Shown here: positions 32,117 through 42,569 of the stretch, in pieces
Position numbering within the stretch: position 1 is the stretch's first letter
Layout of the letters: each line of letters starts with the position of its first letter
Sequence record: PX104380.1
Length of the DNA: 64,000 nucleotides
DNA from: a phage
Reading direction: 5' to 3' (one strand)
Program-made: the position numbers and the translations under genes
The notes under the pieces: generated by a model
Database searches by the model: none
Seen by the model: the letters and a program-made list of their open reading frames with translations, nothing else
Told to the model about the DNA's origin: nothing

Positions 32117-32330
32117 ATTTGACTTCCTTACCAGTACATAAATCATATTCAACTAAACGAATAGGTTCATGAATGCCATATCCCTGAACAGAAATTTCTG
32201 TCGTGGGATAAATTCCATCAATATCACCCATATTCCAGGCTTCATTAAATTGCTGTTCGCCTGAATTACTAAACCACTCGGCGAAAGCATTTAGCACATC
32301 TTCAGAACCTTCAATAATTATCTTTGCCAT
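32109..32330 (-). CDS. hypothetical acidic protein (73 aa)
   Basis: Minus-strand ORF. Confidence 0.45.
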   Translation of the reverse strand: MAKIIIEGSEDVLNAFAEWFSNSGEQQFNEAWNMGDIDGIYPTTEISVQGYGIHEPIRLVEYDLCTGKEVKYD

Positions 32331-32692
32331 TACAAACTCTCGGTGAAGGTACGAGCGATAACGTCGCGCTGCTGTTCCGGAGTCAGAGAGTTAAAGCGAA
32401 CTGCATAACCGGATACACGGATGGTCAGCTGCGGATATTTTTCCGGATGCTTAACTGCATCTTCCAGAGTTTCACGACGCAGAACGTTAACGTTCAGGTG
32501 TTGACCACCTTCAATTTTAACTGTAGGTTGTGTTTCAATTTCAATTTCACGGGCATGCAAACCGTAGAAAATTTCCGGGTCTACAAAAGAGTCCTCTTTA
32601 AAGGTTTTAGAGACAATAATTCGTGCTTGAATACCATCTTCAAAATAAATAGTACCTTTATGTGTGCCTTCAAGAATTTGATATGCTTTCAT
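32330..32692 (-). CDS. autonomous glycyl-radical cofactor-like protein (GrcA/YfiD-like), 120 aa
   Basis: C-terminal [25 protein letters not shown] is the glycyl-radical signature. Confidence 0.75.
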
Positions 32693-32699
32693 ATAAACC

Positions 32700-33080
32700 T
32701 CAATTAGAAAATAAATTTATCCAAGATTGTTCTTTAATTAAAAACGGCTCAGAATCATATGCCATTAAACTTTGCGTAATTAATCCTTTAAAAGGTCCAT
32801 CAATAAATTCCATGGTAAAATATGGAATTTTATTCATTAGCCGTGCATTAGGAGCAGTACATAAAACTCTGCATCCTTTGAATACACCTTTTTGTAATTT
32901 GTATTGCTTGGGATAAAATTCGCTCAAAATGTTATTATTTGCTAAAATTTCAAAATGATTCACCAATTTATTTTTAATAGTTTTTGGCGAAAAATAAAGA
33001 TATTCGAAAAGTTGCGTATCTGTCATCATTGCATTCCAATTACGAAAAACTGCGGACGAGTAATACCACCAATACAGCAT
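32700..33080 (-). CDS. hypothetical protein (start uncertain)
   Basis: Minus-strand ORF. Confidence 0.4.
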
Positions 33081-33679
33081 TTACTATTGCAGCAATATTG
33101 CACAGTTTCAATATGAATATCGTAAATTTTATCCATATCAGGAGATTTAACAGGCTCATCGATTATATACAAAATTCGAGAAAGCGATAAACCTCTGAAC
33201 TTGCTACCTCTATTACCAACAAAACTACGGACAGAATCAGTAAATAAACGAAAACGTATATCATCATTAGAATAACGCGAAAATTCCTTTTTAATGTTAT
33301 TTGCAGAAATTTCAGCGTAAGCTGAAGTATTAGAAAGAACAATAACTGTTCCGCCATCATACAGCCAATTAGCAGCAAAGTTAGTCACAGCAATTGATTT
33401 ACCGGATTGACGTCCACCATCTATACGAAGTGTGCAGTACTGTTTAAGTAATTCTTCAAATGGCGGGATATATTCGTTTTTACAAATTTCTTCTACTCTA
33501 GCATCAGAATGGTGTGTAAAAGCATTCATCAGGGATAGATACGGGCCAGTTAAAAATGTTCTCATATTATTTCTCTTAAGGTTTTTGGGCCATTCCATGG
33601 CACATGAGTTGTCCATTCCTGCATTACCCATTACCGCACTTGGGCTCGACCTTATTACAGGTTGGCGGGAATCCCTCAT
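33026..33679 (-). CDS. small P-loop NTPase-like protein (start uncertain)
   Basis: GGRQSGKS Walker A-like and ILYIIDEP Walker B-like motifs. Confidence 0.45.
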   Translation of the reverse strand: MRDSRQPVIRSSPSAVMGNAGMDNSCAMEWPKNLKRNNMRTFLTGPYLSLMNAFTHHSDARVEEICKNEYIPPFEELLKQYCTLRIDGGRQSGKSIAVTNFAANWLYDGGTVIVLSNTSAYAEISANNIKKEFSRYSNDDIRFRLFTDSVRSFVGNRGSKFRGLSLSRILYIIDEPVKSPDMDKIYDIHIETVQYCCNSKCCIGGITRPQFFVIGMQ

Positions 33680-33708
33680 AGAATCATGAGGTCCAGGTTG
33701 TTCCCATA

Positions 33709-34182
33709 TTATTTGAACGATTTAACGTACTGAATAGAACCTTTACTATTTACAAAGGCAATTTTACCATTTTTATTATACATGGTAGCAGTACGTTGAT
33801 AACCATAAGTTTGTTTACCAGATTGATAACCAACTAATGCGAAATTATCTTCGCCCATTTTATTCTGTTTAGCGCGAATGCGTTCATGACCATGTGCCAT
33901 AAGAACCTTAGCATCACCAGTTACAATGGATCGACGAGTTTTTTCATCTTCAACTGTATTAACAAAGTCGTCAAATGAATCAAATTTAGCATGAGATTTA
34001 TTATACAGTTTTCCATCTACTGCATAATTATATCCCTGTACATCCATCTCAACTTCTGTACCATCATCCAATACAGCAGTAATTTTCTGTCCTTTTTTAA
34101 ATTTCAAAAGATCAGTAAAAGATTCAGCAATAATTTGAGAATTAATAGCTGCTTCAGTGATAAATTCTTGATATGTTTTCAT
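33709..34182 (-). CDS. capsid internal protein with MKTYQEF capsid-targeting sequence (157 aa)
   Basis: N-terminus MKTYQEFITEA matches the internal-protein capsid-targeting sequence; sits next to e as ipIII does in T4. Confidence 0.65.
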   Translation of the reverse strand: MKTYQEFITEAAINSQIIAESFTDLLKFKKGQKITAVLDDGTEVEMDVQGYNYAVDGKLYNKSHAKFDSFDDFVNTVEDEKTRRSIVTGDAKVLMAHGHERIRAKQNKMGEDNFALVGYQSGKQTYGYQRTATMYNKNGKIAFVNSKGSIQYVKSFK

Positions 34183-34237
34183 GTGTTTCCTTTAAATATT
34201 TTAATTAGTAATTTGTCTCTTCAAGCAACTGTGAATA

Positions 34238-34266
34238 TACTATCACAATTCTAGGAGAAAGTAAAC
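34238..34266 (-). promoter_or_regulatory. T4 early-type promoter upstream of internal-protein gene
   Basis: Minus-strand GTTTACTTTCTCCTAGAATTGTGATAGTAT. Confidence 0.5.
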
Positions 34267-34270
34267 AACT

Positions 34271-34801
<531 letters not shown>

Positions 34802-39465: not shown

Positions 39466-39541
39466 TGGTCGAGGCAGTAGGGATCGAACCTACGACCTAG
39501 GACTTAGAAGGTCCTTGCTCTTCCTTCTGAGCTATGCCCCG
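39466..39541 (-). tRNA. tRNA-Arg (anticodon UCU)
   Basis: Manual fold: acceptor CGGGGCA/TGCCTCG, anticodon loop CTTCTAA, T-arm GGTTCGATCC, encoded CCA. Confidence 0.85.
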
Positions 39542-39545
39542 TAAT

Positions 39546-39621
39546 TGGGGTGACCGATGGGAGTCGAACCCATGACTACGAGAATCACAATCTCGAGTTC
39601 TACCAACTGAACTACGGCCAC
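39546..39621 (-). tRNA. tRNA-His (anticodon GUG)
   Basis: Manual fold: acceptor GTGGCCG/CGGTCAC, discriminator C73, anticodon loop TTGTGAT. Confidence 0.8.
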
Positions 39622-39735
39622 ATTAATACCTACTCCAACAATCAAGATGTCTTCACACGAAATTAAGAGAAGAGTGATCAGTTCAACCCCTATAATCGCG
39701 TCAAGTAGATATTAATGTGACAGTTGTCACAAATT

Positions 39736-39810
39736 TGGCGGACGTGATAGGATTCGAACCTATAACCAATCGCTTAACAGGCGATCGCTCTGCCATTGAG
39801 CTACACATCC
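39736..39810 (-). tRNA. tRNA-Asn (anticodon GUU)
   Basis: Manual fold: acceptor GGATGTG/CACGTCC, anticodon stem ATCGC/GCGAT, loop CTGTTAA. Confidence 0.8.
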
Positions 39811-39814
39811 AAAT

Positions 39815-39901
39815 TGGTGGGGAGTGGTGGAGTCGAACCACCCGAGTCGCAATGACAATGAATTTACAGTCCACACCGCTACCTCTACGGGATAACTCCC
39901 C
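39815..39901 (-). tRNA. tRNA-Tyr (anticodon GUA), long variable arm
   Basis: Manual fold: acceptor GGGGAGT/ACTCCCC, anticodon loop CTGTAAA, 87 nt. Confidence 0.7.
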
Positions 39902-39910
39902 AAATTAATT

Positions 39911-39985
39911 TGGTGGCCCTGGGTGGAATTGAACCACCATCTGGCGATTATGAGTCGCTTGCTTGAACCTTCCAGCTACAGGGCC
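39911..39985 (-). tRNA. tRNA with CAU anticodon (Ile-lysidine type as in T4, or Met)
   Basis: Manual fold: acceptor GGCCCTG/CAGGGCC, anticodon loop CTCATAA. Confidence 0.75.
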
Positions 39986-39986
39986 T

Positions 39987-40062
39987 TGGTGCTGATTAAC
40001 GGAATCGAACCGCCGACCTTCTCATTACAAGTGAGTTGCTCTACCTACTGAGCTAAATCAGC
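39987..40062 (-). tRNA. tRNA-Thr (anticodon UGU)
   Basis: Manual fold: acceptor GCTGATT/AATCAGC, anticodon loop CTTGTAA. Confidence 0.8.
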
Positions 40063-40067
40063 AAAAC

Positions 40068-40157
40068 TGGCGGAGGTGATAGGATTCGAACCTATGAATC
40101 GCCGGAGCGACTGCCGGTTTTCAAGACCGGTGCATTCAACCACTCTGCCACACCTCC
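40068..40157 (-). tRNA. tRNA-Ser (anticodon UGA), long variable arm
   Basis: Manual fold: acceptor GGAGGTG/CACCTCC, anticodon stem CCGGT/ACCGG, loop CTTGAAA, 90 nt. Confidence 0.8.
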
Positions 40158-40159
40158 AG

Positions 40160-40233
40160 TCTCCATACAAGGATTTGAACCTTGGACCTCCTGATCCCAA
40201 ATCAGGCGCTCTACCAAACTGAGCTACACGGAG
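40160..40233 (-). tRNA. tRNA-Pro (anticodon UGG), 3' CCA not encoded
   Basis: Manual fold: acceptor CTCCGTG/TATGGAG, anticodon stem CCTGA/TCAGG, loop TTTGGGA. Confidence 0.8.
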
Positions 40234-40243
40234 TAAATTAAAT

Positions 40244-40317
<74 letters not shown>

Positions 40318-40322
40318 AAATT

Positions 40323-40409
40323 TGGTGCGAGAAGTGGGACTCGAACCCACAAGGAAATCATTCCGCAGCATTTTAAGTGCTGTGCCTTTACCAATTTGAC
40401 CATTCTCGC
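40323..40409 (-). tRNA. tRNA-Leu (anticodon UAA), long variable arm
   Basis: Manual fold: acceptor GCGAGAA/TTCTCGC, anticodon stem CAGCA/TGCTG, loop CTTAAAA. Confidence 0.85.
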
Positions 40410-40410
40410 G

Positions 40411-40483
40411 CTGGGAATAAAGGACTCGAACCTTTGCATCCTGGAATCAAAATCCAGTGCCTTACCAACTTGGCTAATTCCCA
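40411..40483 (-). tRNA. tRNA-Gln (anticodon UUG), 3' CCA not encoded
   Basis: Manual fold: acceptor TGGGAAT/ATTCCCA (U1-A72), anticodon stem CTGGA/TCCAG, loop TTTTGAT. Confidence 0.85.
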
Positions 40484-40580: not shown

Positions 40581-40868
40581 TTACCATTTATGATAATACA
40601 TATTTACGATGCACTCAAGACCCAAAGGATTCTTGAAAATATCATATTCAAGAGGACCTTTTTCTGTTTCAATAAAGAAATCAAAATTTACTGTATTAAA
40701 TTTATGGTCTTCCTTCACTAATTTAACTTGAGAAGATGAACGGTCAATGTAAACTTTTTCAACTTCAAAACATGTTAAAATACCATAATCATCAATCAAG
40801 GCTTTAGCTGCTTCTTGATCATATTTATATCCATTTTCAATGGATGATACTTTTGCATAAAGAATCAT
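40581..40868 (-). CDS. hypothetical protein (95 aa)
   Basis: Minus-strand ORF. Confidence 0.5.
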   Translation of the reverse strand: MILYAKVSSIENGYKYDQEAAKALIDDYGILTCFEVEKVYIDRSSSQVKLVKEDHKFNTVNFDFFIETEKGPLEYDIFKNPLGLECIVNMYYHKW

Positions 40869-40871
40869 TAT

Positions 40872-41291
40872 TTACCCTTCATCAACAATAGTATGAGTGT
40901 GGGCATTTACAATTTGCCACCAATCAAAGCGATTAGAACCATACATTGGTTTGTTCTCATTTTCTTTGATAATGTCACGGAGTTCATCTTCGGTAGCGGC
41001 TTTCGCGATTAAATCAGCATACCCACCGCGAGGATAATAATTATCACCCGCAAAAAGTAAAAAGTTCGGTTTAATATTATTGAACTCTTCAAGAGTAATA
41101 ACTTTTCCTGTCGGTTGAACAATCTCTACATATTTATATCCTAATTTTTGAGCAGCATCTACTGCTTCAAGCAGGGTATCATGAGCCCATCCAATTTGGC
41201 AATCTGGCTTTTCAGATGGATTAGCCTGATAATCCGCGTACACTTTATACATTCTATTCACCTTTAGAAATTTTATCCATAACGATAGCAA
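40872..41291 (-). CDS. hypothetical protein (139 aa)
   Basis: Minus-strand ORF. Confidence 0.55.
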   Translation of the reverse strand: MLSLWIKFLKVNRMYKVYADYQANPSEKPDCQIGWAHDTLLEAVDAAQKLGYKYVEIVQPTGKVITLEEFNNIKPNFLLFAGDNYYPRGGYADLIAKAATEDELRDIIKENENKPMYGSNRFDWWQIVNAHTHTIVDEG

Positions 41292-41439
41292 TTAAACCAA
41301 TTAAAAATGCTACTACAAGTGAAAAAACATTTTCTGCTGTAGTCAATAATCCGCATATAAATCCAACAAACATTGAAAAACTAAAAGCAGAAGCAGAAAT
41401 TGCAATAGCAACATTTCGAATTAATTCACAGCGTTTCAT
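41254..41439 (-). CDS. small membrane protein (61 aa)
   Basis: Hydrophobic; SD GAGGAGAATAAA; early promoter upstream. Confidence 0.5.
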   Translation of the reverse strand: MKRCELIRNVAIAISASAFSFSMFVGFICGLLTTAENVFSLVVAFLIGLIAIVMDKISKGE

Positions 41440-41515: not shown

Positions 41516-41800
41516 TTACAAAAGATTTTTAGCAATAATTTTAAGCTGAGCTACTGAAATATGCTTGGCTTTAAACAAAGCAGTTTCTTCAGCAGGGGAG
41601 ATAACGATTGTAGCACCATCTTTCTTAGCGGACCATCCATCACCCAGGTAAACAGTACCTTTGACTTCTTCGCCATCAACCAGGCTAATCATCGGTTTAC
41701 CTTCACGTCCTTTGTTTGCTTTAATAACTTCAGAAGTAAGGGTCGCTTCAGTCAAAGTAGAAGCGTTAGTGGTTGAAGTGAATTCTTGATAAGTTTTCAT
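41516..41800 (-). CDS. ipI: capsid internal protein (IPI-position), 94 aa with MKTYQEF capsid-targeting sequence
   Basis: N-terminal MKTYQEF; position between tRNA cluster and 57B as T4 ipI; early promoter upstream. Confidence 0.7.
   Translation of the reverse strand: MKTYQEFTSTTNASTLTEATLTSEVIKANKGREGKPMISLVDGEEVKGTVYLGDGWSAKKDGATIVISPAEETALFKAKHISVAQLKIIAKNLL

Positions 41801-41872: not shown

Positions 41873-42569
<697 letters not shown>

Follow-up and report, generated by a model that had tools for sequence, protein, structure and literature searches.

The ip4 gene and its surroundings

The DNA analysed here, a stretch of 64 kb which we refer to as the window, is a segment of a Tequatrovirus (T-even) genome, to which the Escherichia phages vB_EcoM_G4507 and ECP52 are 98.3% identical over a 24-kb stretch around the gene under study. 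This gene is an intact ORF encoding 157 amino acids (N-terminus MKTYQEFITEAAINSQ), whose product aligned with positions 1-158 of the Pfam profile PF24183 (DUF7412) over residues 1-157 (E 2.5e-95, 317.3 bits, cut-off 27) and also matched PHROG 3155, "internal virion protein" (E 2.3e-101). The T2 ORF annotated "IpIV internal head protein" (GenBank BBC14742.1) shares 156 of its 157 residues (99.4%), the "Ip4" of phage K3 (UniProt Q38388) is 98% identical, and the copies of phages KMB42 and fPS-2 are 100% identical; homologous copies in RB32, Shfl2 and KP182 also carry the label Ip4. By tblastn, Ip4 was found in 471 phage records from several Tevenvirinae genera. The protein is at least 95% identical in 307 of these, which stem mainly from phages isolated on Escherichia, Shigella and Yersinia, and 60-80% identical in about 160, from phages of Klebsiella, Salmonella, Serratia, Proteus and other hosts. 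From this we conclude, with hardly any room for doubt, that the ORF is ip4 and encodes the internal head protein Ip4 (IpIV) of T2/K3-type T-even phages.

Ip4 is therefore not a new protein; the gene is named, catalogued, widely annotated and widespread. Nevertheless, our literature search did not find Ip4 in a phage context in the main text of any paper, and an Ip4 entry is absent from the HIDEN-SEQ supplements. The T-even ip genes were reportedly described first by Repoila et al. in 1994, whom Silas et al. cite for them, and the name Ip4 presumably goes back to the same work of the 1990s, as the label of UniProt Q38388 and this citation suggest.

The coordinates of the features discussed below are compiled in Table 1. 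The gene order in the window is e, ip4, vs.8, vs.7, vs.6, as in T2, and that of T4 is e, ipIII, ipII, denV, vs.8, vs.7, vs.6. The ip genes are found in two hotspots, one downstream of e and the other between the tRNA cluster and 57B; ip4 occupies the first of these positions, with flanks that are 95% identical to those of T4. The gene denV, encoding endonuclease V, a pyrimidine-dimer glycosylase, is absent from its T4 position, i.e. from the junction of ip4 and vs.8 at 33680-33709, as is also the case in T2. Further downstream, vs.6 (32330-32692, minus strand) codes for an autonomous glycyl-radical cofactor of the GrcA type (PF01228, E 2.2e-18), in agreement with the T4 RefSeq annotation.

Table 1 Features of the ip4 locus and the second internal protein gene of the window. 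Positions are those of the window.
Feature	Position	Strand	Description	Basis
Late-promoter consensus TATAAATA	34792..34799	(-)	Exact match to the T4 late-promoter consensus, upstream of e	Sequence match
e	34271..34765	(-)	T4-type lysozyme; conserved left anchor of the ip cassette locus	Pfam Phage_lysozyme; 95% DNA identity to T4 e
e-ip4 spacer	34183..34270	(-)	Portable 5' module with early-type promoter-like site and ribosome-binding site	Sequence; alignment with T4 ipIII, T4 ipII and window ipI
ip4	33709..34182	(-)	Precursor of internal head protein Ip4; 157 codons plus stop	ORF list; DUF7412; PHROG 3155; T2 IpIV; K3 Ip4
Capsid targeting sequence (CTS)	34153..34182	(-)	MKTYQEFITE, codons 1-10; the last three residues form the first I-x-E site of the gp21 prohead protease	9/10 identity to the T4 IPIII/IPII CTS
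Variable linker	34123..34152	(-)	AAINSQIIAE, codons 11-20; its end carries another conserved (I/L/M)-x-E motif, predicted to be cut by gp21 as well	Family alignment and AF2
Folded body of Ip4	33712..34122	(-)	Codons 21-157; predicted small beta-barrel-like sheet with a three-helix insertion; pI ~9.3, 15.5 kDa	
vs.8 homolog	33026..33679	(-)	Conserved right anchor of the ip cassette locus	PHROG 1488
ipI	41516..41800	(-)	Second CTS internal protein of the window; 94 aa, 18-residue leader ending in LTE	PF11634; PHROG 4363

The spacer between e and ip4 shares 95% identity with its T4 counterpart between e and ipIII, and 73% with the region upstream of T4 ipII. It contains a promoter-like site, consisting of GTTTAC at 34261-34266 and TGaTAGTAT with the -10 element at 34237-34242, which we take to be an early promoter based on the consensus of T4 early promoters, followed by the ribosome-binding site AGGA of ip4 at 34188-34191. 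According to a four-way alignment, this module of promoter, ribosome-binding site and CTS is common to T4 ipIII and ipII and in part to the ipI of the window. Since a late-promoter consensus is located upstream of e and no terminator-like site was found on the minus strand between e and ip4, late co-transcription of ip4 by read-through from e is plausible as well.

The second hotspot of the window is occupied by ipI, which lies between a cluster of tRNA genes and Acb1/57B. The product of ipI matched Pfam PF11634 (IPI_T4) with an E-value of 1.3e-51, residues 19-94 corresponding to all 76 profile positions (1-76). The tRNA cluster at 39466-40483 (minus strand) comprises 11 genes (Arg, His, Asn, Tyr, Met(CAT), Thr, Ser, Pro, Gly, Leu and Gln), and many short ORFs listed across this region are spurious. 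T4 has eight tRNA genes, so that the set of the window appears to be the larger one. Between the cluster and ipI, three ORFs of 95, 139 and 61 aa (40581-41439, minus strand) represent hotspot cargo; none of them had a Pfam match, and the 61-aa ORF resembles a small membrane protein. The gene for the anti-CBASS nuclease Acb1 (gene 57B; 41873-42331, minus strand; PF23474, E 6.6e-60) lies immediately upstream of ipI, and the ipI hotspot therefore adjoins another counter-defence gene.

Leader, predicted processing and predicted structure of Ip4

The first-pass annotation had described the ORF as a CTS-bearing internal protein and had pointed out that the ipI ORF likewise starts with MKTYQEF. Indeed, a six-frame scan of the 64-kb window with the motif MK[TSQ][YF]x[ED]F yielded exactly two matches, which are the starts of these two ORFs, each a real ORF with the motif at its N-terminus. 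An exact motif of seven residues at two ORF starts excludes chance. The CTS of T4 IPIII and IPII reads MKTYQEFIAE and is the same at nine of ten positions. In T4 IPIII, the first ten residues are sufficient for targeting to the head, residues 4 and 7 were shown experimentally to be important for targeting and residues 8 and 10 for processing, and gp21 cuts after L/I-x-E (PMC9026906). The leader of Ip4 conforms to the pattern MKTYQEFIxE and contains all of these residues (Y4, F7, I8 and E10), and its gene lies in the slot of ipIII and ipII, which bears out the assignment to the CTS proteins.

A second motif of this kind follows at the end of the linker. In the close Ip4 family, residue 20 is almost invariably E and only I, L or M occur at position 18, and two of the three distant homologs (P0016 and P0017) retain the motif as L-N-E. 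In the AF2 model, residues 1-20 are disordered ahead of a confident body, with a pLDDT below 50 at residues 10-19 and a folded body that begins at about residue 21-23. We thus predict that mature Ip4 begins at A11 or S21, which would correspond to a protein of 16.5 or 15.5 kDa with a pI of 9.1-9.3.

By analogy with T4 IPIII, the precursor would be recruited into the scaffolding core of the prohead via residues 1-10, and the gp21 prohead protease would cleave after E10, and probably a second time after E20, to remove the leader. The head would then hold a basic Ip4 of about 15.5-16.5 kDa at tens to hundreds of copies, which would be ejected into the cell together with the DNA. Although the literature search found no experiment showing Ip4 in virions, we consider it highly probable that the protein is packaged into the head and injected.

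Adding two distant homologs to the alignment increased the pLDDT of the AF2 model of Ip4 from 72.7 to 86.5, with a pTM of 0.80. In the model, an N-terminal beta-hairpin (residues 33-54) is followed by three short helices (70-103), and residues 113-156 form a C-terminal sheet of four strands. A Foldseek search of the model against BFVD returned the Ip4 of K3 (Q38388) as the sole significant match, and echoes of SH3-, Sm-, Tudor- and L19-type small barrels were weak. The family profile had no match below E 0.5 among all PDB sequences, and the PADLOC defence-protein models gave no meaningful match to Ip4. As modelled, the fold offers no functional hint and has no known relative.

The body contains about 20 invariant positions, mostly Gly, Lys, Asn, Gln, Tyr and Thr, many of which are located between the helices and strands of the model. 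They include K58, N61, K62, N107, K108, Q120, G122, G127, Y128 and T131, with R130 nearly invariant; Q120 ends and T131 starts a strand in the model. This pattern is compatible with a binding surface. A histidine-based catalytic site was also considered, as H64, H97 and H99 are kept in the close family. It was rejected because the distant homologs P0015-P0017 replace these residues, and their loss argues against a histidine-dependent enzyme.

Cassette exchange and conservation of Ip4

The first-pass annotation had further noted that the 157-aa body does not resemble T4 IPII or IPIII and had asked for alignments with T4 IPI, IPII and IPIII. These alignments revealed no likeness outside the leaders. 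In BLASTP, Ip4 aligned with T4 IPIII over residues 1-13 only, and the alignment with T4 IPII was driven by the first 11 residues, so that the similarity of the mature bodies that would mark an ortholog of IPIII or IPII is missing. The ORF also had no match to PF11634 and does not belong to the IPI_T4 family. A candidate homology between the N-terminal hairpins of Ip4 and IPI, suggested by a BLAST alignment with 32% and a 13-bit Pfam cross-match, did not hold either, since nothing aligned once the leaders were removed (E = 14).

At the DNA level, the homology to T4 (95%) covers e, the 88-nt spacer and the first 32 nt of the ip4 ORF and ends at 34151; it restarts exactly at the ip4 stop codon, with 33709 corresponding to the base after the T4 denV stop. 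One exchange junction is thus located within the CTS-coding sequence and the other one at the stop codon. From these breakpoints we conclude that the Ip4 body replaces the body of T4 ipIII together with ipII and denV. That the ORF might instead be a strongly diverged ortholog of IPIII or IPII would agree with the common locus and the common leader, but we regard this as practically out of the question: protein similarity stops at the leader, the T4 DNA homology breaks within the CTS, Ip4 belongs to a different Pfam and PHROG family, and the Klebsiella phage PKO111 carries Ip4 in addition to an IpII ortholog. Judged by these comparisons, the ORF is a straightforward ortholog of the long-named Ip4 and not of IPII or IPIII.

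Where the ipIII/ipII slot has a different occupant, this is most often Ip4, and about 310 of the approximately 770 phage records matching the locus share the layout of the window. Other genera retain the frame of e, one or two CTS genes and vs.8 with varying occupants. Apart from the pair in PKO111, Ip4 occurs together with an unrelated 87-aa CTS protein in the Proteus phage ABTNLPp2 (N-terminus MKTYEEFINESVKAPKGAFKV; locus L004, 4063-4326, plus strand) and with an unrelated 105-aa CTS protein in the Shigella phage SH7 (N-terminus MKTYQEFIAESAAGQRVEGGY; locus L005, 2101-2418, minus strand). Both additional proteins are unrelated to Ip1-4, and that of SH7 is mis-annotated as "internal head protein III".

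The sequence of Ip4 itself changes slowly. The comparison with T2 revealed eight synonymous and one non-synonymous codon differences (dN 0.0027, dS 0.088), and with this ratio of about 0.03 ip4 is under strong purifying selection. In comparisons of the window phage with phages of Jiaodavirus or Gelderlandvirus, identity is 70-74% for Ip4, 65-68% for the lysozyme and 40-43% for vs.8. By this measure, Ip4 is not hypervariable and is conserved between genera to the same degree as the adjoining lysozyme. Because Ip4 diverges slowly, the variability at the locus results from cassette exchange and not from Ip4 divergence; the diversity of the locus consists of swaps of whole bodies behind a shared module of promoter, ribosome-binding site and CTS rather than of rapid change in the Ip4 sequence.

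The Ip4 family is small and comprises 14 clusters at 90% identity plus three distant members from metagenomic phages. The latter are 34-37% identical and carry the leaders MNFxxFLNES or MVTFKEIYNS. One of them, P0017 (33-34% identity), is encoded in a T4-like metagenomic contig between Acb1/57B and a vs gene. An exhaustive HMMER scan of 1.84 billion representatives and a word-indexed profile search detected no bacterial relatives of Ip4.

In vB_EcoM_G4507, the closest sequenced relative, a run of seven A stands in place of the six A of the window (34093-34098; on the coding strand, codons K29-K30) and splits ip4 (locus L006, 33722-33841) into ORFs of 39 and 120 aa. The truncated 39-aa product also forms a separate protein cluster (P0020). 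The additional A may reflect either an error in sequencing or genuine slippage. For the ipIV repeat of T2, a preprint from 2025 dealing with contingency loci of phages reports zero variation (PMC12633550).

Possible function of Ip4 and comparison with known internal proteins

Our literature search found no assignment of a function or target to Ip4. As reported by Silas et al. (2025), the GmrSD type IV enzymes blocked by Ip1, Ip2 and Ip3 differ from one another, and none of the three proteins protects against the target of another; ip4, like ip5-10, showed no reproducible inhibition of a panel of GmrSD variants (PMC12373910, Supplementary Fig. 9). In the same study, T2 and T6, which lack Ip2 and Ip3, were still inhibited by leaky expression of GmrSD-ECOR21 and required exogenous Ip3 for normal plaques on GmrSD-ECOR17. 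T2 carries Ip4 natively. We therefore conclude that Ip4 is no substitute for Ip2 or Ip3 and that its specificity differs from theirs, which is in line with the suggestion of the first-pass annotation that the body may be an effector of different specificity. Another CTS protein, Bas37_0260, inhibits McrBC (2025 preprint, 10.1101/2025.11.20.689424).

As the best overall explanation, to which we assign a probability of roughly 0.55, we propose that Ip4 is a packaged, processed and injected inhibitor of a type IV-like nuclease and that diversity at its locus arises by cassette swap. The injected protein would stoichiometrically inhibit a modification-dependent (type IV-like) nuclease directed against DNA with hydroxymethylcytosine or glucosyl-hmC, with a specificity that would differ from those of Ip1, Ip2 and Ip3. 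For the role itself, i.e. an injected inhibitor of a modification-dependent nuclease, we see about even odds, which still makes it the likeliest one by analogy with the other internal proteins. It has to be reconciled with the negative result on the GmrSD panel, with a fold that gives no functional hint, and with the slow evolution of Ip4, which is unexpected for an inhibitor engaged in an arms race with a hypervariable nuclease. In addition, the basic charge of Ip4 (pI ~9.3) would also fit a non-specific association with DNA.

Two other readings have to be weighed against an anti-restriction function. Ip4 might be an injected effector directed at something other than a type IV restriction enzyme, either at a different class of defence system or at a conserved function of the host, for example a factor acting on the nucleoid, transcription or RNA. 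Ip4 would then be the odd one among the T-even internal proteins and bind a host factor conserved throughout the Enterobacterales or a widespread defence other than GmrSD. The absence of inhibition of any member of the GmrSD panel points in this direction, and the identity of 70-74% across Tequatrovirus, Jiaodavirus and Gelderlandvirus together with the strong purifying selection would fit a conserved target better than a hypervariable one. The invariant residues, which are polar or basic and mostly located between the helices and strands of the model, are also consistent with such a target, as are the small-barrel echoes of the SH3, Sm, Tudor and L19 type, which are weak but belong to folds that often bind nucleic acids or peptides. 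However, all four CTS proteins with known targets are inhibitors of type IV restriction, and the GmrSD panel sampled only a small number of active clusters from a highly diverse family and did not include McrBC, McrA, Mrr or PvuRts1I-like enzymes. We therefore hold this explanation to be possible but rather unlikely.

Even less probable, in our view, is a mainly structural role, in which Ip4 would associate with DNA and serve charge neutralisation, the organisation of packaged DNA or non-specific shielding during entry, without a specific host target. Like IPII and IPIII, mature Ip4 is predicted to be basic (pI 9.1-9.3), T4 internal proteins, which number about 300 copies per head, bind to DNA when the salt concentration is low (PMC9026906), and Ip4 is the only CTS protein in the slot between e and vs.8 both here and in T2, where T4 has IPIII and IPII. 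But IPII and IPIII, which were once seen in the same way, proved to be specific GmrSD inhibitors, and about 20 invariant positions in a well-folded body are more than a generic polycation would require. As a discovery, Ip4 matters little because the gene is catalogued and widespread. Its target, once found, would either extend the list of inhibitor-nuclease pairs or establish injected effectors of a new class, and would aid the prediction of host ranges for T2-like phages in therapy collections.

Among the known systems, the Ip4/IpIV of T2, K3 and RB32 is the same protein, with 98-99.4% identity over the full length, the same leader and the same site downstream of e; it differs from the Ip4 of the window by one or a few conservative substitutions only, such as V87, which is A in T2. 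With T4 IPIII and IPII, the inhibitors of GmrSD-ECOR17 and GmrSD-ECOR21, Ip4 has in common the genomic slot, the module of promoter, ribosome-binding site and CTS, the basic mature protein and the presumed route of packaging, processing and injection, whereas the bodies are unrelated and their function is not replaced by Ip4. T4 IPI/IPI* (PF11634), the inhibitor of GmrSD-CT596, is likewise an injected internal protein with an MKTYQEF leader, and the window contains a copy of its gene; unlike Ip4, it is encoded at the tRNA-57B locus and combines a leader of 18 residues, in which LTE is the sole site, with an unrelated body of 76 aa. Finally, Bas37_0260 of a T-even phage of the BASEL collection resembles Ip4 in being a CTS protein encoded in an ip hotspot, and its body is unrelated to Ip1-3; the anti-type IV function is that of Bas37_0260, which differs from Ip4 in its ipI locus and in its identified target, McrBC.
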